Positions 2,676 through 59,236 of a DNA stretch of 64,000 nt are shown here, piece after piece. The position numbers were made by a program, and so were the translations under genes. The notes beneath the pieces were generated by a model, which saw only the letters and a list, made by a program, of their open reading frames with translations, did not search any database and had not been told where the DNA came from. Each line of letters begins with the position of its first letter. Position 1 is the first letter of the stretch. Source of the stretch: a phage; the sequence record PZ534511.1. The stretch is one strand, 5' to 3'.

Positions 2676-3658
2676 TGCTAAAACTGTGCACTGCAAAGAT
2701 TATTGCTGACAGCATTTCCGAGAAAGGTAAGCGTATCACCACTTTTGAACTAGAGTATCCTCGAATTATTCACTCAGAGCTTATGACGCACCGAGTGTTC
2801 AGCCGAAACGCCATGTCTTCCCGTGCAGTACCTGTCGGCAAGATGCTGCAACAGATTGTGGAGAATCCGGCAATGCCAGTTCGCTTCGGTGTAAATAAGC
2901 GAGGAATGGAAGATGGTGGAGAACACGATCAAAAGATCCGTGTAGAGTACACTGACATGGAGCTAACTCCTGAAGAGTTTTGGAAAGAAGCTGCAAAAAA
3001 CGCCGCTTGGCATGCAGAGAAGTTCGCCCTTGCTGGTTACCATAAGCAAGTATGTAACCGCTTAGTGGAGCCGTTCCAGCGCATGAAAACAGTTGTAACA
3101 AGCACCGAGTGGAATAATTTTTTCCACCTCCGTTGCTGGCACGATGCGGATCCTACGATTCAGATGTTAGCTAATTGTATGTGGGAGGCTCTTGAGAATA
3201 GCACTCCTGAAATCCTTAAACCGGGTCAATGGCACACACCATATGTAGAGCACGTTTATTTGGACGGCGAGTTTAACTATGCTGTACGTGACACAGAAGG
3301 AAAGCTTTGCATTCTCGATACTGGAGAAGCTCTGTCTATTAGTGCTAGTTGCTGTGCACAAGTATCTTATCGAAATATTGACAGCACGTTTGAAAAGGCA
3401 GACAGTGTGGCTAAAAAATTGATTGGTGGGGATCGTATTCATGCAAGCCCTTACGAGCACCAGGCAACACCTATGGATCACGATAATGCAATGGAACGTT
3501 TAAACTACTATCTATCTTCATGTGAAATCACACAAGACAGCTGTGTTTGGCAGGAAGGTGTAACCCATCAAGACCGTGATGGTAAATTCTGGTCTGCCAA
3601 CTTTTGTGGGTGGGTTCAGCACAGACAACTGCTTAATAACCACTTCGTGAAAGGTTAA
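2675..3658 (+). CDS. thyX: FAD-dependent thymidylate synthase ThyX-like
   Basis: THRVFSRNAMSSRA aligns to ThyX signature RHRxxSxxxxSxR(Y). Confidence 0.6.
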   Translation: MLKLCTAKIIADSISEKGKRITTFELEYPRIIHSELMTHRVFSRNAMSSRAVPVGKMLQQIVENPAMPVRFGVNKRGMEDGGEHDQKIRVEYTDMELTPEEFWKEAAKNAAWHAEKFALAGYHKQVCNRLVEPFQRMKTVVTSTEWNNFFHLRCWHDADPTIQMLANCMWEALENSTPEILKPGQWHTPYVEHVYLDGEFNYAVRDTEGKLCILDTGEALSISASCCAQVSYRNIDSTFEKADSVAKKLIGGDRIHASPYEHQATPMDHDNAMERLNYYLSSCEITQDSCVWQEGVTHQDRDGKFWSANFCGWVQHRQLLNNHFVKG

Positions 3659-3687
3659 TCCTATCACAGCGATAGGTAACTTTTGTG

Positions 3688-3716
3688 TTGACTAATAGTA
3701 TCAGATAATCTATAAT
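3688..3716 (+). promoter_or_regulatory. sigma70-like promoter (TTGACT-17-TATAAT)
   Basis: near-consensus -35/-10 hexamers with 17 nt spacer. Confidence 0.6.
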
Positions 3717-3756
3717 AATGGCTCACTTTGTTGGTGAGCCAGAAATGGAGACAGAT

Positions 3757-4218
3757 ATGAGTAATGTTATGATTCCTAAAAAGACATTTATTTCAGTTAC
3801 TTTGGATTTCCTATCTACCGTCCCTGGGTTTAACGTTCGCACACGAAACGGTCTCCGAGCTGCACTCTTTGCCGTGGGGTTTGATTTAAAAAATATCGAT
3901 GTTCTTCGTGGAAAAAACGTTCGATGCAAAAATAAGCCAACACATTATCGAAAGGCAGATGTATTTGCTGGTGTCATGCGTGCAGACTTTAGATACCCAC
4001 AAATGTATAACGGTGTAGATATTTTAGATGTAGATAAAGCACCCGGTGAGGCAATGCTTGTTCAAGATCTTCCGTATGATATCCCTGTAGAGGATCGTGT
4101 TAATGTAAGAAAGTATACAAAACAATCTGAAAAGGCTGAAGATATTCATATTGTTGATGAACCTTTCAATTTTGAAGATCTGCATCGCCTGGAAAAATTA
4201 TTCGGTATTGAAAGCTAA
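3757..4218 (+). CDS. hypothetical protein
   Basis: ATG at 3718 lies inside the promoter; first ATG with GGAG RBS is 3757. Confidence 0.45.
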   Translation: MSNVMIPKKTFISVTLDFLSTVPGFNVRTRNGLRAALFAVGFDLKNIDVLRGKNVRCKNKPTHYRKADVFAGVMRADFRYPQMYNGVDILDVDKAPGEAMLVQDLPYDIPVEDRVNVRKYTKQSEKAEDIHIVDEPFNFEDLHRLEKLFGIES

Positions 4219-4228
4219 GGTGGTGAAG

Positions 4229-4459
4229 ATGAGTCATAACTCCAAGTGGAAGGATCTTGGTTTTGCAAGTCGGGCAGAATATGTTGGTTGGCTTTGGTTC
4301 AACGGTCTGACAAACGATATTAAAATGTATGATGATGTTTATTATGACGAGTATACAGGTAAAATTATAAATATCTCTGTAGAAGAGGATACCTTTATCC
4401 AGCAAGATACTGATACCTGCCTTGATAAATACGTTAATGAAGTGGAGGAAGCAAATTGA
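4229..4459 (+). CDS. hypothetical protein
   Basis: ATG with AAGGTGG RBS; upstream part of track ORF overlaps previous gene. Confidence 0.4.
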   Translation: MSHNSKWKDLGFASRAEYVGWLWFNGLTNDIKMYDDVYYDEYTGKIINISVEEDTFIQQDTDTCLDKYVNEVEEAN

Positions 4460-6809: not shown

Positions 6810-7898
6810 ATGGCTGTATTTAATGCTGAGAACACCGCTCATAAAACTGGTGACTATCCGCTGTTTCTGGGACAGCAAATGGGTATGTACGACTCTATCA
6901 ACAAAAAATATCCGCAACTGTTCGAACTGTACAAAAAACAAAAAGAACAAGACTGGGCAGAGGATGAAGTGGATTTGTCGCAATCTATTTCAGATTTTGT
7001 AACATGCTCCAAGTCAACTTATGATGTAATGGTGCAGACCTTGATGTGGCAATGGGAGGCTGATAGCGTTGCGGCAAGATCGATCATCTGCCTCTTTTCA
7101 CCATTCATCACTAATAGTGAGCTTTTCACTCTATTGATGAAACAGTCAGAGATTGAAGTTCTTCACGCACTAACTTACTCAGAGATTGTTAGACAATGCC
7201 TCCCCAATGCCCGTGAGATTATAGAAGAGATTCAGGAAAACCAAAACGTTCTGAGCAGATCTGGCGTTATTGTCAAATACATGCAAGAGCTTGAGGTTAT
7301 TGGTGCAAAATACCGACTGGATCCTTCTAGTGTTGAAGAAGATATTGTGCGGAAATGCATTCTTAGAGCGCTTTTTGCACTTTTAGCTCTGGAAAGTATT
7401 GAGTTTATTGCAAGTTTTGCATGCACTTTCGCAGTAGCTGAACAGGGTATTTTTGTTCAGGTGGCACAGCTTGTTCAAAAAATCATGCTTGACGAAATGC
7501 TACATTCGAAAGGTGATTTTGCCATCATTGATATCCTGCTTAACGATCCAGCATGGGAGAAAAGCTTCCTGGAGATAAAAGGGGAGTTAAAAGAGATTCT
7601 TGATGAAGTACGAACCAAGGAGTACGGTTGGAGCGACTATATTTTCAGCGAAGGAAGAGCGATTATAGGCCTTAACTCACCGTTGCTTAAAGAATGGGTT
7701 GACTATAACTGCTCACCGATTTATGATTACTACGATATCGACAAAGACTTTGTGCCGCCAACAAAGGACCCGCTACCGTTTATGCAGGTGTGGATGAAAC
7801 CTTCATTGCAACAGACGGCGAACCAAGAAATGTCGAACACTGACTACCGAGTCAACACAACTGTTAACGACGCTGAAGAAGAAATTTGGGAGTTTTAA
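6810..7898 (+). CDS. nrdB: ribonucleotide reductase class I small subunit
   Basis: adjacent to nrdA; ferritin-like helices with E/H-rich motifs; start moved to ATG with GAGG RBS. Confidence 0.85.
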   Translation: MAVFNAENTAHKTGDYPLFLGQQMGMYDSINKKYPQLFELYKKQKEQDWAEDEVDLSQSISDFVTCSKSTYDVMVQTLMWQWEADSVAARSIICLFSPFITNSELFTLLMKQSEIEVLHALTYSEIVRQCLPNAREIIEEIQENQNVLSRSGVIVKYMQELEVIGAKYRLDPSSVEEDIVRKCILRALFALLALESIEFIASFACTFAVAEQGIFVQVAQLVQKIMLDEMLHSKGDFAIIDILLNDPAWEKSFLEIKGELKEILDEVRTKEYGWSDYIFSEGRAIIGLNSPLLKEWVDYNCSPIYDYYDIDKDFVPPTKDPLPFMQVWMKPSLQQTANQEMSNTDYRVNTTVNDAEEEIWEF

Positions 7899-26421: not shown

Positions 26422-26523
26422 ATGGAGTACACAATGAGAACATTGTCCGAAGTTTTAGTGGTGATCCTGATGATCATTACGTCCATAGCGGCTGTTGCCG
26501 GAATACTCACGGGTGGAACATGA
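26422..26523 (+). CDS. 33-aa hydrophobic micro-protein (below ORF-track cut-off)
   Basis: single TM-like stretch; stop overlaps next ATG. Confidence 0.3.
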   Translation: MEYTMRTLSEVLVVILMIITSIAAVAGILTGGT

Positions 26524-26732
26524 TCAACACACATGCATCTGAAGAGACATCCGAAGGAGTGACCATATGTCCCTTGGATGAGCCAGTTAAAGAGGAAAAC
26601 TTAGATTCTGAGGACTCTTCATCTTCGTCCCAGACAGATCCTGAGGCTGATGACCTGACGTGGGAGGACATCGTAGATATCTGGTTCTCTATTATGCCTG
26701 AGCACGAAGAGTTCAGAGGTGGTAGACTATGA
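26520..26732 (+). CDS. hypothetical acidic protein
   Basis: ORF; Ser/Asp/Glu-rich. Confidence 0.4.
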   Translation: MINTHASEETSEGVTICPLDEPVKEENLDSEDSSSSSQTDPEADDLTWEDIVDIWFSIMPEHEEFRGGRL

Positions 26733-26771
26733 AGCACCGAGCCCACACAGGTTCCTCATGCTAAAGCATGG

Positions 26772-27982
26772 CCTGAAGAGGCAAACGTGTATAATTCTTG
26801 TGCATTGGAACGTATAAAACCCTGTTCACACTCTCATTCCCAGAGGAGATTTTATGAAGATAGAAATATTTGGTGGGGCTGACAACACTCGTGGCCTGAT
26901 TTACCTTGAATTCGATGAATCATACCTGCCAGAGGTGTTAAATATAGACTCTGTTGCTGAGGCTTTGGGAGTAAACCCTAAAGAACTCCACTCTTGTGCT
27001 GAGATCGATGGTTGGGAAGAGACCATGAATATTGATTTCAGTGAAGTAGAGGATGAACCGCTGGACTGACACACAATTAGCTGCCCGGCTAAAGTGCTGG
27101 AAGCACCTATAACACATCTTTCAACTAAATTTCCTACCACCACAATCACTTACCTCCCACACATGACTGTTTGCTTGTTTAGTGAGCAGTCATGCCTTGA
27201 CATTCTTGCCTATCCTGATAAAATTAAGTTCTTCTCTTTTCTTTTACCGAGTAATTCGGGTTTTCTGTTCTCTTCGGTTTGAAGGGGTATGGAGATACAC
27301 CTGAGTGAACAGGGTGAACAACCGAACCATTGGCTATGGCATTAGCATGGCGAAGCGGACGGGTGACGAAAGAGTGGCCGGAGGACACCAGTCACTGCCA
27401 TATGATATATGGGTGATAACCTGAAGAGTCTGAATAAGTGTTTAAGTACCAGTCAGAGGAAAAGGTGAATGGTAGCCGAAGGGGGAGGGGGGTTTCTTGT
27501 ATCTTTAATTTGTATATTATGTATACACTTGTAAACCAATCTCATCTGAATCTGTTTACCACACAAGGCGGATAGAGACAAATATTACCTATTAAACTTG
27601 AATTATTTATAGAAAATACCACAACACCACTTAAGTCTTTGATTTTACACACAAATCTTACAGATATTCAGCCTCCCTATTTAACATACCTGTAACATAT
27701 TCCATACTCTACCTGTCTGATCAATTTACTCCCACCACATCCCCACATTTTCCTTGTCTGTACTACCCCTGCCCCGCCGGGAGTCCCGTCATATCTGGCT
27801 TTCCAGCAAATATCACACCCACAAATATCATTGCCTGAAGAGGGTTTCATCCCATAACACATGCCTTACCTGAAGAGCGCTTCATACACCACGTAAATTT
27901 TTTAATTGACCTCCCCTTCCCCGCCGGAGAGGTTGGCTTTTCCCACACAGACCTGAAGAGTCAGCCAGAAATATCTGAAGAG
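26772..27982. repeat. six dispersed copies of 9-mer CCTGAAGAG (one TCTGAAGAG)
   Basis: copies at 26772, 27420, 27834, 27869, 27952, 27974 on the same strand. Confidence 0.6.
26854..27069 (+). CDS. hypothetical acidic protein
   Basis: ORF with GGAG RBS. Confidence 0.45.
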   Translation: MKIEIFGGADNTRGLIYLEFDESYLPEVLNIDSVAEALGVNPKELHSCAEIDGWEETMNIDFSEVEDEPLD

Positions 27983-28610
27983 GGTCTAGTTCTGCCCTGT
28001 CATGAGCGGTAGCGACTGGAGTGCTGCCAGGCGGACGAAATGGGAATACTTCTCATTCTTATAATAATTCTCAAATATCGAGGCAGTGAGGCAAATTAAT
28101 AGGTGAGGCCGTTCACACAGTGGCACAACATTTGCAACCTATCTTGTGGGGGTGAATGAGAATACCTATCATTGTGAGAATAGTTATCATTACGGGCAAT
28201 TTAACATAATACCCATTATGCGCACCACTGGCGATACATACAGGGATTGATAACATGAGTTACAGTTTACGCATATAACAATCATATTTCTTACTATTTG
28301 TGTGGGATATAGTTAGCAGCCAATAGATTAGATATTGACCTGCAGACTTCCAACCGTCTAGACGTCTAAACGCCCACACAACAAGGATTATACATACATC
28401 GCTGAATGTAAACAGGGCCGCAAAAATGCTACCATACCAGTTTGTAAATTTTTCATGCAGCACTTGACAAAGAGGAGAAAAACTTGTCTGACACACCGGA
28501 CACAATATGGCACAATAACGACTGTTATTATTTCATGTTTCACTGTTCACGTATAGATTGTTCCCGCATAGACTGTTTACACCTTGACAGTTTACACAGA
28601 TATGATAAGC

Positions 28611-28860
28611 CATGACATTCGTTTGCATGAAAACAATTAGCAAGTTAACAATTAACAAGTTAATAATATATGACATAATATAAAAGCAGGGCAACTATTA
28701 GCAGATCTATAGTTGCCTTGCTTGTTATGTCATGATTAACTAAATACAAGGCAACTATGATCTGATTAATAGTTTGCAGACAAACTATCACGGGGGTGAT
28801 GGTTACTGCTTTTATATTATGTCGCGACTCCGTCGCGCCATGCCATTCGTTTGCATAGTT
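28611..28860. repeat. cluster of inverted and direct repeats (candidate origin or regulatory site)
   Basis: 18-mer CATGMCATTCGTTTGCAT x2; 21-bp inverted pair at 28668/28807; AAGGCAACTAT and its complement x4. Confidence 0.55.
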
Positions 28861-29470
28861 GCCTTATTGTTACAGGTAAAACAATTACATTATTAATTAT
28901 TTCTTATCTTTCTGTTAGTCATCTAATGATTCCAGTTAGTATAGTAACGTACAGTAAACATTAGACGACTAAAGATTTCTCTGCTTATGATAACTTGCCG
29001 TGACAATTTCGGACTGTTTACGAAAAATGTTGACACCTGAGCTGATTTATGTTATGCAATTTAAACGAATAATTATTTTATGCAGGTATTGACTATTCCG
29101 TTATTCTATGGTTGGAATAAATACTTAGCAAGCTATAGAATGGTGAGCGTACGTAAATTCTGAAATCTGGCGGCTATAGTTATACTCGATTTTTCGCATA
29201 GGACACGCTTTCGATGTTGTGTAAGTGTATGACTTATAAGAATTTTTATTTGTTGACAAGATATTGAAGATATGCATCAGGTTAAAATTTATGCAATAGC
29301 GGCATTACGTGCAATTTTGGGAGAGAAAACGGGCAAAAATGGCCTTGCTACCACACAATGAAAAATTATGCAATAGTTATTTTCCATGTATATTTGTACA
29401 GTGTGTGGGATTAATAGCTAGTCAATTATTCCACTTGCCAGGTAGGGCCGTTTATGGTAGGAGAAGAGCA

Positions 29471-29498
29471 GACAAAAAGAAAGGGGCCTAAGCCCCTT
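29471..29498 (-). terminator. rho-independent terminator for the minus-strand gene block
   Basis: GGGGC-uuag-GCCCC hairpin followed by U-run on minus strand, just after stop of 29517 gene. Confidence 0.55.
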
Positions 29499-29516
29499 GA
29501 TAATTCAGTTAAAAAA

Positions 29517-29936
29517 TTATAATGATTCGTATATTTCAAAAATCCGATTTGCCAGGTCGTTACGGTAGCGGAATTTTTCCTCACGTTTGATCATAAGATC
29601 TTTATAACCGTACTCTTTAAGCACTTCATTAACTTTATGGCGGCATACTTTCATATTATCCTGCGCGTCACCAATAAATCTGTTGCTATGGTGCATGGCT
29701 TTAATTTCTTCTTCCAGGACCAGGGCAACTATGCGGACCGGATCAAGCTGATAGGCGGTAACATCCATGCGGCATTGTAGACGGCTTTTAACGTCCGCCA
29801 CCGGATATACTGCAACCTCTTCCCCGTCAACATTGACAATAATTAGTTTACCATCGATTTCGAATCCTTTCGCCGCCGGACCGTGACAAAAAGCGTTATC
29901 AAAGCTATATGCCGGATTATCAGATTTAATGTTCAT
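29517..29936 (-). CDS. hypothetical protein
   Basis: ORF with GAGG RBS. Confidence 0.5.
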   Translation of the reverse strand: MNIKSDNPAYSFDNAFCHGPAAKGFEIDGKLIIVNVDGEEVAVYPVADVKSRLQCRMDVTAYQLDPVRIVALVLEEEIKAMHHSNRFIGDAQDNMKVCRHKVNEVLKEYGYKDLMIKREEKFRYRNDLANRIFEIYESL

Positions 29937-30081: not shown

Positions 30082-30347
30082 TTATTTGTTGCTCATCCAG
30101 TTTTCCCAAGCTGCCTGATAATCTGCCTCACTACGGCGGATCTCTTCTTGCTCTTCAAGCCGGATCTCTTCTTCCAGGTACCCCAGGATATCGGATTTTT
30201 TGGTCTGGCGTAGCATCCAGTCATCTTTTTTGCGAGTAAAGATCTTATAAGCTTTCTCGCAAACCTCTTTTTTGCTACCTTTTTGGACTTCAAGAATTCT
30301 GTAGGCCATGTACTGAACTAATTTAAGCTGATCCAGACGTTTCATGA
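30082..30347 (-). CDS. hypothetical protein
   Basis: ATG preceded by AAAGAGGAAAACATC cassette. Confidence 0.45.
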
Positions 30348-58894: not shown

Positions 58895-59236
58895 CTACTC
58901 AAGGTCTTCAGAGTCAAGCTCAAAAAGAATCAAACTGTGCATGCCTGCAGAGAGATTAACACACCCTGCAACAATAAGGGTTTGATAGTAAGGTCCAGCA
59001 CCCTCAATGTCTTCGTTAAAATCTACAACAAGGTAGTCACCTTTGTTAAAGGTGTATTTGTCCGATGTAAACGCAAAACCTGCCCAGTCTCCTACTGCAG
59101 GATCTTTATCAGTCACCTTTGTTAGCAGTAGATCTTTTTCACGAGATCTTTTAGTAAAATCGTGAATCACAACATTCTTCTCTTCAGGAGTCGGATTGCC
59201 ACACACGTAGTTAACGATATTTCTCCACAAACTCAT
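58895..59236 (-). CDS. hypothetical protein
   Basis: ORF with AGAGGGG RBS. Confidence 0.45.
   Translation of the reverse strand: MSLWRNIVNYVCGNPTPEEKNVVIHDFTKRSREKDLLLTKVTDKDPAVGDWAGFAFTSDKYTFNKGDYLVVDFNEDIEGAGPYYQTLIVAGCVNLSAGMHSLILFELDSEDLE

Follow-up and report, generated by a model that had tools for sequence, protein, structure and literature searches.

Short words repeated on one strand beside the genome ends are a feature of T7 and its relatives. In T7, CCTAAAG occurs 22 times on the top strand, and 16 of these copies are no more than 340 nt from the ends, both within the terminal repeat and beside it, whereas the other strand has three copies in the whole genome and none near the ends. 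One copy of this type reads CCTAAAGAGGGTCT, and the promoter phiOR points at the junction. Dunn and Studier (1983) reportedly named the T7 short repeats SRL and SRR, and same-strand arrays occur at the same place in T3, gh-1 and SP6, each with its own word. To our knowledge the function of the T7 array itself has not been established, and an analogy with it transfers location and not mechanism. Binding has been demonstrated experimentally at two other packaging sites. At P1 pac, in a headful phage, TGATCA/G hexamers to the left and right of the cut are bound by the packaging proteins, and at lambda cosB, in a phage with cohesive ends, the R sites are bound by the small terminase subunit.

The window analysed here, a 64,000-nucleotide stretch of the record PZ534511.1, comes from an rV5-like coliphage (Vequintavirus), a 137-kb myovirus unrelated to T7. 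A nine-base word, CCTGAAGAG, is clustered in the 2.45-kb "non-coding" gap of rV5. As in the T7 group, a word of 7-9 bp is repeated on one strand at an irregular spacing of 12-80 bp and the array abuts a short direct terminal repeat, and as in T7 itself an upstream promoter is directed into the junction. The words are also similar, being CCTAAAG (with the one copy CCTAAAGAGGGTCT) in T7 and CCTGAAGAG(GGTCT) in the window. There are fewer copies, 3-5 compared with about 16 in T7, a second word, CAAATATC, is interleaved with the first, and two outlying copies are located up to 1.26 kb away. Unlike the T7 word, CCTGAAGAG is found neither in the terminal repeat nor on its far flank (no copy with at most one mismatch in 28030-29520), where a different 10-bp repeat is found instead, and this difference weighs against a packaging signal. 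Of the properties of SRL/SRR-type repeats, the locus has a word repeated above chance, on a single strand, in an array abutting the terminal repeat, and it lacks the word inside the repeat and on the other flank.

The array resembles P1 pac and lambda cosB in that a short word recurs several times at a distance of at most a few hundred bp from a terminase cut, although binding has been shown at those two sites and the words of the array are putative binding sites. The rV5-like phages differ from both in having a direct terminal repeat, and the P1 elements are found to either side of the cut, whereas the exact copies in the window are on one side only and those of a distant relative, KPP-1, are on both sides in opposite orientation. 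We regard the array as a known kind of feature, the functionally unexplained short repeats of T7 type, in a new occurrence in rV5-like phages.

Genome ends and the position of the array

A direct terminal repeat of virion DNA, 459 bp long, is represented in the collapsed assembly by one copy, at 28030-28488. In the EdH4 record the first 459 nt are exactly the same as the last 459 nt, and both map to 28030-28488. Besides EdH4, five records have their cut at the left or the right boundary of the repeat, giving six GenBank records in all; bov10K2 is cut between 28029 and 28030 and the records of Pr121LW, EcoIv14a_Aya and ECP2303 are cut between 28488 and 28489. Terminal repeats of 458 bp (PMC6563267) and 459 bp (PMC7471380) have been reported. 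Judged from the record ends of these relatives and the published repeats, the left edge of the terminal repeat at 28030 is a fixed genome end. The core copies of CCTGAAGAG are located 78-196 nt to the left of this boundary and point toward it, and the last copy (27974-27982) ends 48 nt before it.

The sequence-only reading had suggested binding sites for a phage protein, naming as examples first a small terminase subunit at a pac site and then a replication initiator or a transcription factor. The link to packaging gained real support from the fixed end near the array, placed by means of database records and published repeats, and from the analogous T7-group arrays beside terminal repeats, although the ends of these phages are fixed and carry a terminal repeat, unlike a classical headful pac site. 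No small terminase gene is present near the site. Some papers have deduced circular permutation or headful packaging for rV5-like phages with PhageTerm, which speaks against a signal at a fixed end; the records from one such study are nonetheless cut exactly at the repeat boundary.

A further comparison was provided by Klebsiella phage KPP-1, a distant member of the subfamily with a coverage-mapped terminal repeat whose boundaries are homologous to 28030 and 28488. To the left of its own terminal repeat KPP-1 has ACCTGAAGTGTCAGCC, the counterpart of the copy at 27952, the ACCTGAAGnGTCAGCC element on this side being homologous, and AAAATATCA repeats occupy the place that matches the CAAATATC boxes. 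Two inverted copies, one exact and one with one mismatch, are found on the other strand inside the terminal repeat. For type B, a divergent lineage found only in metagenomes, with flanks that barely align with the window, a terminal repeat is predicted by homology, and none of the metagenomic contigs of this type end at the predicted boundaries.

Copies of the nine-base word and their conservation

Exact copies of CCTGAAGAG are present on the plus strand at 26772, 27420, 27834, 27869 and 27952, and a degenerate copy, TCTGAAGAG, at 27974. These are the six positions and the strand given by the sequence-only reading for the region 26772-27982, and the longer matches that it described for the third and fourth copies were likewise found (CCTGAAGAGGGTTTCAT and CCTGAAGAGCGCTTCAT). 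The excess held against shuffled-sequence controls, in that the 64-kb window contains nine exact copies compared with 0.46 expected and none of 100 shuffles reached nine. On one strand of the 2.45-kb gap, four copies were observed compared with 0.007 expected from base composition (Poisson P ~1e-10), three of them within 127 nt (27834, 27869 and 27952), and no minus-strand copy with at most one mismatch was found in 26700-29520.

The sequence-only reading, which was not exhaustive, had noticed no copies elsewhere in the window; four more exact copies exist, at 2102, 2969 and 9602 on the plus strand and at 59180 on the minus strand. All four are within long sense ORFs, in the frame CCT-GAA-GAG (Pro-Glu-Glu), and a further TCTGAAGAG at 26538 encodes Ser-Glu-Glu within a 70-aa ORF (26520-26732). 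In a complete relative of 136,204 bp, five of the ten exact copies are within ORFs and the other five form a 1.2-kb non-coding cluster, so that every non-coding copy of that genome falls inside one stretch; this and the enrichment in the window are in favour of a packaging signal.

The core copy at 27834-27842 (CCTGAAGAGGGTTTCAT), 196 nt left of the terminal-repeat boundary, is unchanged across all type-A relatives and is found at the homologous place in type-B contigs. The next, at 27869-27877 (CCTGAAGAGCGCTTCAT), begins 35 nt past it and is kept in type A (as TCTGAAGAG in L078), with CCTGAAGAGGCATCCATACA as its type-B counterpart. The core copy at 27952-27960 (ACCTGAAGAGTCAGCC), 78 nt left of the boundary, is kept in all type-A sequences. 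The degenerate copy at 27974-27982 is specific to the window and stands at the edge of a hypervariable stretch, the relatives having CTGAT/CGAG or CTGAAGGG at this site. The successive core and degenerate copies are irregularly spaced, by 35, 83 and 22 nt.

Other plus-strand elements accompany the core. Two CAAATATC boxes, 15 nt apart at 27807-27829, precede the copy at 27834 by 12 nt; this word occurs only three times in the 64-kb window, the third time at 28072 and always on the plus strand. Type B retains both spacings (15 nt and 12-13 nt), which is in favour of a packaging signal. A C-rich hairpin (27908-27934, stem ACCUCC...GGAGGU), followed by GGCUUUUCC and CACACA, comes just before the copy at 27952, and type B has CCCUCCC-AGA-GGGAGG at the hairpin position. 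On the far side, an array of about 10-bp repeats (TGACACACCG GACACAATAT GGCACAATAA, plus strand, 28489-28520) starts precisely where the terminal repeat ends on the right, with three units in the window and six in Pr121LW and CM1.

The type-B contigs (L008, L012, L014, L020 and L025) have only short blocks in common with the window. Given that they keep 4-6 copies of CCTGAAGAG in the same orientation although little else aligns, selection on the word itself is indicated, and CCTGAAGAG is the sole 9-mer repeated at least three times in both lineages. L008 contains one copy of the T7 word CCTAAAGAG; a minus-strand copy in this contig was treated as due to chance because the other type-B contigs do not conserve it. 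The variation of copy number and spacing between the lineages counts against a packaging signal. A metagenome scan with a 17-base pattern returned at least four true relatives among the matches listed, a scan for ACCTGAAGnGTCAGCC revealed no new lineage, and IMG/VR scans for paired CCTGAAGAG copies were swamped by Pro-Glu-Glu repeat proteins. A literature search on the sequence itself yielded only primers. An origin from the host was rejected, as the array region showed no similarity to complete E. coli genomes.

Possible roles in transcription and replication

A strong predicted sigma-70 promoter at 27197-27224 on the plus strand (TTGACA-16-TAAAAT with TG) fires toward the array and the terminal repeat, and its location and its extended -10 recur in type B (TTGCAA-17-TATAAT) with a different spacer. 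It is followed on the same strand by a candidate structured non-coding RNA of about 265 nt (27231-27495) that is nearly invariant among type-A relatives; its start is approximate, being set from the -10 hexamer, and its end is the last position before conservation drops. A homologue is present in type B, and two hairpins show compensatory changes.

The copies could therefore be read as RNA elements, acting in the transcript from this promoter or in read-through from the plus-strand operon, either as recurring targets of an RNA-binding protein or nuclease (a decoy or sponge) or by pairing with their complement, CUCUUCGG, which is found in the 5' part of the RNA candidate. Every conserved copy in types A and B is on the strand transcribed from upstream, which an RNA role would explain too, and an exact nine-base word is typical of base pairing. 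One copy (27420-27428, plus strand) is inside the promoter-driven conserved RNA and another (26772) is in the 5' untranslated spacer of a gene, the CUCUUCGG at 27270 is kept in both lineages and can pair with CC-U-GAAGAG, and one type-B copy folds into a hairpin, with GAAGA in the loop and U9 after the stem, that resembles an intrinsic terminator. The copy at 27420, conserved but away from the boundary, is also awkward for a packaging signal. It is dispensable, having been lost along with its hairpin from L014, L020 and L025 and changed to CCTGAAAAG in L078, and this argues against the RNA reading as well. Moreover, the stretch 27500-27800 is C-rich and G-poor, so that untranslated transcripts may end before reaching the cluster, and neither an Rfam match for the RNA candidate nor similarity to E. 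coli DNA was found. Local folds of the type-A cluster were no better than those of shuffled sequences (z from -0.6 to +0.7, not significant) and no structure was common to the copies. This result, together with the inverted copies on the other strand inside the KPP-1 repeat, led us to favour a DNA-level reading, and a role in RNA is considered unlikely.

Resemblance to the hammerhead core (CUGAnGA) had also been pointed out. CUGAAGA does fit the CUGANGA core box, and the copy at 27420 has a UCUGA...UCAGA stem and GGAAA after it. The other copies have by inspection no GAAA box or helices, the 10.1-11.1 (stem II closing) pair at 27420 would be G-G, and searches of both strands gave no ribozyme or relevant Rfam family at gathering scores or, with permissive filters, at E up to 10. 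The chance that the copies belong to hammerhead or other small self-cleaving ribozymes is thus close to nil.

Mimicry of an anticodon loop, of boxB or of the 16S 5' end was considered from partial likeness by eye and rejected, the flanks supporting no common fold. The lambda nutL boxB RNA hairpin is GCCCUGAAGAAGGGC, which shares CCUGAAGA with CCTGAAGAG, and the type-B copy GGCCUGAAGAGGGCU folds into the hairpin with the GAAGA loop. Unlike boxB, most copies lack complementary flanks, which means that hairpin formation does not characterise the motif, and there is no boxA partner; the resemblance is probably accidental. A mimic of a type III antitoxin (ToxI, with a pseudo-ToxI in the rV5-like phage phiTE) was rejected for want of a constant head-to-tail unit of about 34-45 nt: only the third and fourth copies are 35 nt apart and the corresponding type-B copies are 62-112 nt apart. 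The phiTE locus, beside tRNA genes and the terminase, is not syntenic with the array, no Rfam match was obtained, and tRNA genes are absent here.

The outlying copy at 26772-26780 (plus strand) is in the 121-nt spacer upstream of the last plus-strand gene (26854-27069), which encodes a 71-aa acidic protein, and it is retained in every type-A and type-B contig despite differing flanks. Its position ahead of a gene and 1.26 kb from the boundary counts against a packaging signal. Alternatively, the copies would be operators through which a phage transcription factor controls this gene and transcription into the junction, the proximity to the genome end being incidental. The copy at 26772 has a TATAAT 9 nt downstream and the start codon of the 71-aa gene some 75 nt away, the copy itself is retained in both lineages, and a gene called a transcriptional regulator is found 1.3 kb upstream. 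Most copies however adjoin no gene, and in neither lineage is there a -10 element at a fixed distance from the copies; a sigma-70 or MotA-like promoter element was rejected similarly, the TATAAT 9 nt downstream being found at 26772 and not at the other copies or their type-B counterparts. The neighbouring small proteins have no DNA-binding domain matches, and operator function is very unlikely.

Strong acidity and a lack of family or structure matches make the adjacent 71-aa protein itself an unlikely binder, and the neighbouring proteins gave no informative family matches. A neighbour annotated as 'DNA translocase FtsK' has 87 aa and lacks an FtsK-gamma-like Pfam domain, and an FtsK-gamma-like reader was dismissed; the sequence GGGnAGGG at the end of the RNA candidate had prompted this idea. 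Minus-strand coding was also rejected, since the frame of the two small ORFs annotated in APCEc02 (one as "structural protein") is broken in type B.

The position of the repeats in a non-coding hub of converging gene blocks would also suit sites for a replication initiator, or a barrier to forks or transcription. One-way arrays are typical of iterons and Ter sites, the GC skew turns in the gap, and the gap holds origin-like features, namely the repeats at 28489-28520, inverted repeats nested at 28672-28872 and a number of AT-rich stretches, with three perfect tandem DnaA boxes in type B. These origin-like repeats however consist of other words and are at a distance of 500-900 nt, beyond the terminal repeat, and the irregular spacing of CCTGAAGAG differs between lineages; the other repeat families of the gap agree better with the definition of iterons as regular direct repeats by an AT-rich element. 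DnaA boxes are not enriched in the window, and the skew turn tracks the direction of transcription, as the rV5 authors noted likewise. A role of CCTGAAGAG in replication control is considered quite unlikely.

A candidate signal for end formation and packaging

The reading that we tentatively favour, at somewhat less than even chance, is that the one-strand array at the concatemer junction is part of the signal for end-cutting and packaging. The copies at 27834, 27869 and 27952 and the CAAATATC boxes would form a one-strand array abutting the left boundary of the terminal repeat, and in replicating concatemers this site would be the junction of two genome units. Within the signal, the array would serve for recognition. 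Its repeated words would be bound, as duplex DNA, by a maturation protein of the phage, for which the small subunit of the terminase or a partner of this subunit is the most plausible candidate; the common orientation of the words would give the complex its polarity, and a nuclease would then cut 50-200 bp downstream, between 28029 and 28030. Transcription running toward the junction from the strong, conserved promoter at 27197 may help in this, a role reported in T7 for transcription that enters the concatemer junction. That a protein binds the repeats, which protein it would be and that its binding would direct cutting or packaging are proposals on our part.

The T7/T3 podoviruses and the rV5-like myoviruses are unrelated coliphages with one-way arrays of nearly the same word (CCTAAAGAG and CCTGAAGAG) against their terminal repeats. 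One shared factor, whether a host protein or a convergent terminase specificity, might read both words and mark concatemer junctions, an idea that we consider quite unlikely. If true, the rV5-like array would be the first comparative handle on the role of the T7 short repeats.

rV5-like phages are widely isolated and are used as candidates for therapy and biocontrol, and their 2.5-kb "non-coding" gap has been without assigned content since 2013, while papers disagree on whether the genome is permuted or its ends are fixed. With the terminal repeat located in the gap, beside a conserved, oriented array, there is a concrete candidate for a packaging and maturation signal. The placement also allows correct linearisation and annotation of rV5-like genomes, and the array and the boundary are defined sequences to keep intact in genome engineering. 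Finally, a feature of T7-type podoviruses is extended to a group of large myoviruses with a nearly identical word, which should make it easier to study by comparison and mutation.

Copies of the nine-base word in the convergent gap

The nine-base word CCTGAAGAG occurred nine times in the window compared with 0.46 times expected from dinucleotide-preserving shuffles of the 64 kb, and CTGAAGAG occurred 15 times compared with 2.3 expected. The non-coding copies were located at 26772, 27420, 27834, 27869 and 27952, with an additional one-mismatch copy at 27974; the sequence-only reading had placed all six correctly on the plus strand and had also recognised the longer CCTGAAGAGnGnTTCAT common to copies 3 and 4. 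It had noticed no copies elsewhere, but four more exact ones were present at 2102, 2969, 9602 and 59180, each on the sense strand of a long ORF and in the frame CCT-GAA-GAG (Pro-Glu-Glu). These, and TCTGAAGAG at 26538 (Ser-Glu-Glu codons of a 70-aa ORF at 26520-26732), are ordinary coding occurrences. The clustering itself was borne out by a genome-wide count in the complete relative OR992645.1 (136,204 bp), where 5 of 10 exact copies were found in the 1.2-kb cluster stretch and the other 5 within ORFs. On one strand of the 2.45-kb gap four copies were seen and 0.007 expected from base composition (P ~1e-10).

Identity of the window to 121 phage records was 92-97%; nearly all of these are from Escherichia phages of the genus Vequintavirus (rV5-like). 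The cluster sits in the gap flanked by rV5 gp158, the last plus-strand gene (26854-27069), and rV5 gp159, the last minus-strand gene (29517-29936). This gap is left empty in careful annotations and was drawn as a grey box marked non-coding in the rV5 genome paper, whose authors expected bidirectional terminators between genes 163 and 164 and found none (PMC3606486). The product of the last plus-strand gene, which is always preceded by a copy of CCTGAAGAG, is a protein of 71 aa, of which about 19 are acidic and 4 basic. This protein was found only in Vequintavirus and in contigs of a divergent metagenomic lineage (type B, as opposed to type A, the window and its close relatives). It gave no family or structure matches and could be a DNA mimic or inhibitor. 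None of the neighbouring proteins contained an informative domain; the 87-aa protein (30082-30345, minus strand) is labelled 'DNA translocase FtsK' in phages naswa and APCEc02, a label that appears unsupported given that no FtsK or other Pfam domain was found. The plus strand is C-rich and G-poor at 27500-27800 and across the whole gap, with many CACACA/CCACACA words; in the complete relative 6 of the 30 genome-wide plus-strand CCACACA copies fall within 2 kb, and at other places in the window CACACA is often found after -10 hexamers or intercistronic hairpins and right before ribosome-binding sites. The 27500-27800 stretch could be a Rho loading region serving the end of the plus-strand operon.

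Several other readings of the copies were examined and rejected. The hammerhead resemblance raised in the sequence-only reading found no backing, since neither this nor any other Rfam family matched on either strand with E up to 10, and no tRNA genes were found. A promoter element was set aside because no -10 hexamer lies at a constant distance from the copies, and a coding role because the small ORFs that the annotation of one relative places on the minus strand are interrupted in type B. An antitoxin mimic was rejected on the grounds that type B does not preserve the 35-nt period linking copies 3 and 4 and that such an RNA of the rV5-like phage phiTE sits elsewhere in the phiTE genome. The type-A cluster folded no better than shuffled sequence, and host origin was rejected given the lack of similarity to E. 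coli genomes.

A putative terminal repeat beside the array

The records of several relatives start or stop inside the gap. Those of Pr121LW (USA), EcoIv14a_Aya (country not given) and ECP2303 (China) are cut between 28488 and 28489, that of bov10K2 (Hungary) between 28029 and 28030, and that of EdH4 (Germany) starts at 28030 and ends at 28488, its first and last 459 nt being identical; the EdH4 authors reported 458 bp 'short terminal redundancies' (PMC6563267). For Klebsiella phage KPP-1, a distant member of the subfamily, a 514-bp repeat with T7-like packaging was described based on twofold coverage and PhageTerm (PMC9862379). The KPP-1 repeat occupies the same convergent non-coding gap and its boundaries are homologous to those predicted here, both on the left (GTGCTA/GACGGAC compared with GTGCTGCCA/GGCGGAC) and on the right (ending in TTGACAAGGAGAGAGAATTGTGTT compared with TTGACAAAGAGGAGAAAAACTTGTC). 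Given that the record ends, the EdH4 duplication, the published repeats and the KPP-1 boundaries agree, we conclude from sequence comparison that 28030-28488, present once in the window, is the predicted 459-bp direct terminal repeat of rV5-like virion DNA. This conflicts with two papers in which PhageTerm indicated circular permutation or headful packaging, yet the records of one of these studies have their cut precisely at the repeat boundary. In several papers and many records, rV5-like genomes are taken to be circularly permuted or are linearised elsewhere.

The core copies (27834, 27869 and 27952) point toward the left boundary from start positions 196, 161 and 78 nt to its left, and the window-specific fourth copy (27974) ends 48 nt short of it. 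The array would thereby form the right end of the unique sequence in the virion, just ahead of the right repeat copy, and one side of the genome-genome junction in a concatemer. The last conserved copy is separated from the repeat by hypervariable sequence (27975-28010), in which relatives carry insertions of up to ~50 nt (e.g. CCTGACCTACAGGGAGGCCCGAAGGGTCTAGCTTTCAGCTAGAG) and the short variant of the window creates the extra TCTGAAGAG. Exactly at the right boundary starts an array of a different word, with a period of ~10 bp (TGACAyAnnn, 28489-28520), which has three units in the window and six in Pr121LW and Shigella phage CM1, type B having AGGCATAC repeats in this position; the most variable part of the gap is 28475-28675. 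In CM1 (MK962749.1, locus ~3600-4290) the terminal-repeat segment is present twice, the second copy beginning exactly at GGCGGACGG after 63 nt of TGACAyA repeats, and this doubling either arose as a true duplication at a physical DNA end or is an artefact of assembling the repeat. Three TGAGAATAnnTATCATT copies within the repeat (28041-28057, 28157-28173 and 28175-28191) resemble a Fur box (~13/19 positions, by eye); similar elements are found within the KPP-1 repeat (AATGAGAATAATTATT and AATGAGAATCATT), and GAGAATAATTATCATTATC of a 153-kb phage (L010) matches 16/19 Fur-box positions.

Conservation of words and spacing in a divergent lineage

The copies are kept in the close relatives, which are too similar for this to carry much weight, and the informative set consisted of five type-B contigs, L008, L012 and L014 from IMG/VR and L020 and L025 from metagenomes. 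Their gp159 homologue has 91% protein identity, and their non-coding region, which was not found in the phage collection, has only short blocks in common with the window. It contains 4-6 copies of CCTGAAGAG, all on the same strand as in the window and with different flanks. In an unbiased count CCTGAAGAG was the only 9-mer, and CAAATATC the only other 8-mer, with at least three copies in both lineages. Copy number turns over between the lineages: a decayed CGGATAGAG in the window is the counterpart of one type-B site, another site reads CCTAAAGAG in L008, and the copy within an RNA candidate (27231-27495, plus strand) has been lost from three contigs by deletion and carries a mutation in one type-A contig. 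Both lineages have retained four places, namely the spacer before the last plus-strand gene, a copy with two CAAATATC boxes ahead, a copy followed by TyCATACA and a copy after a C-rich hairpin and CACA. The 153-kb phage, which has a gp159 homologue, contains neither CCTGAAGAG nor the RNA candidate.

The window as a whole contains only three copies of the second word, CAAATATC (27807, 27822 and 28072, all plus strand), and 4 of its 8 copies in the complete relative fall within the cluster. The order CAAATATC, 15 nt, CAAATATC, 12-13 nt, CCTGAAGAG is kept in type B and the bases between differ. That two different words have kept their spacing suggests that they serve a nucleoprotein assembly and are not independent sites.

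A strong sigma-70 promoter starts at 27197 on the plus strand (TTGACA-16-TAAAAT, extended -10), and the ~265 nt that follow (to 27495, plus strand) hardly vary among relatives and look like an undescribed structured non-coding RNA. Type B has kept the promoter position (TTGCAA-17-TATAAT) and a recognisable homologue of the candidate, with compensatory changes in two hairpins (CCGAG/TTCGG compared with CCAGAA/TTCTGG, and GTAT/ATAC compared with GATA/TATC). The pyrimidine-rich 5' end of the candidate is able to pair with its G-rich 3' end (GGGGGAGGGGGG, which in type B reads GGGGGGTAGGGGG). The candidate had no Rfam match and its fold z-scores were only -1.5 and -2.0. It carries CUCUUCGG, complementary to the word, and in the E. 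coli lineages all conserved copies are on the strand that transcription from upstream reads, so it is possible that the copies act at the RNA level; arguments against such a role are, however, the lack of a structure shared by the copies, the C-rich sequence upstream and the presence of inverted copies in KPP-1. Some type-B contigs (L008 8716-9486, plus strand of the locus; also L014) carry an inserted gene between the RNA candidate and the array, oriented the other way and similar to HNH endonucleases from Klebsiella and Salmonella phages; L012 and type A lack this gene.

Farther right, 28609-28872 is a repeat nest conserved among relatives, with a perfect inverted repeat of 18 nt (arms at 28672 and 28806, 116 nt apart), five occurrences of CAGGGCAACTAT and its complement, two of GCCATGnCATTCGTTTGCAT and a tandem of AACAATTAnCAAGTTA, which looks like an origin or binding platform. 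In L008 three perfect DnaA boxes (TTATCCACA) lie in tandem and in the same orientation (7840-7885, reverse strand of the locus), within the type-B stretch corresponding to the terminal repeat; no such boxes were found in the terminal repeat stretch of the window, and DnaA boxes were not enriched window-wide. Since these origin-like repeats, inverted repeats and type-B DnaA boxes share the gap with the array, a role of the array in replication control is also possible.

Likeness to T7 and a possible packaging signal

Dunn and Studier reportedly described in 1983 that heptamer arrays adjoin the T7 terminal repeat. On the T7 top strand we counted 22 CCTAAAG copies, 16 of them within 340 nt of an end (three per repeat copy, eight just inside the left repeat, and two that directly precede the right repeat), with degenerate copies alongside; the other strand has only three, none near the ends. 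The T7 copy ahead of the right repeat reads CCTAAAGAGGGTCT, compared with CTGAAGAGGGTCT at 27975 and CCTGAAGAGGGTTT at 27834 in the window, and the T7 promoter phiOR points into the junction, as does the 27197 promoter. KPP-1 has ACCTGAAGTGTCAGCC to the left of its repeat, matching ACCTGAAGAGTCAGCC at 27952, together with AAAATATCA repeats, and the opposite strand within the repeat carries an exact CCTGAAGAG as well as CCTGAAGCG. Given that T7, T3 (CCTAAAG and CTTAAAG arrays), Pseudomonas phage gh-1 (a CCATAGG array) and Salmonella phage SP6 (CTTAGTG in the first 650 nt) use words of their own, arrays of short, one-way repeats next to terminal repeats are a general feature, the word itself depending on the lineage. 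To our knowledge the role of the T7 heptamer arrays themselves is not established.

From the observed anatomy of the array we infer its binding and function, and tentatively, with slightly less than even confidence, read it as the recognition module of an end-formation and packaging signal. In this model the repeated words would be bound at the DNA level by a maturation protein, for which the small terminase subunit is the most plausible candidate; polarity would come from the orientation that the words have in common, the cut would fall at the repeat boundary downstream of the array, and transcription from the conserved 27197 promoter may help. In T3 and T7, sequences recognised for packaging lie within 5% of the termini, and gp18 and gp19 are engaged when RNA polymerase pauses at the concatemer junction (PMC3276506). 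The packaging reading is poorly fitted by the conserved 26772 copy, which lies 1.26 kb away and ahead of a gene, by the dispensable copy within the RNA candidate, by the absence of CCTGAAGAG from the terminal repeat itself and the far flank, and by the change of copy number between lineages.

The array is new for rV5-like phages, whose gap was published as empty, and its kind is already known from the T7 group. It is mildly surprising that the word of an rV5-like myovirus is one base away from that of T7, the phages being unrelated, and this near-match may be a coincidence given that the words differ among T7 relatives. If it is true that the near-match reflects a common reader, an old question on the T7 repeats would open to experiment.
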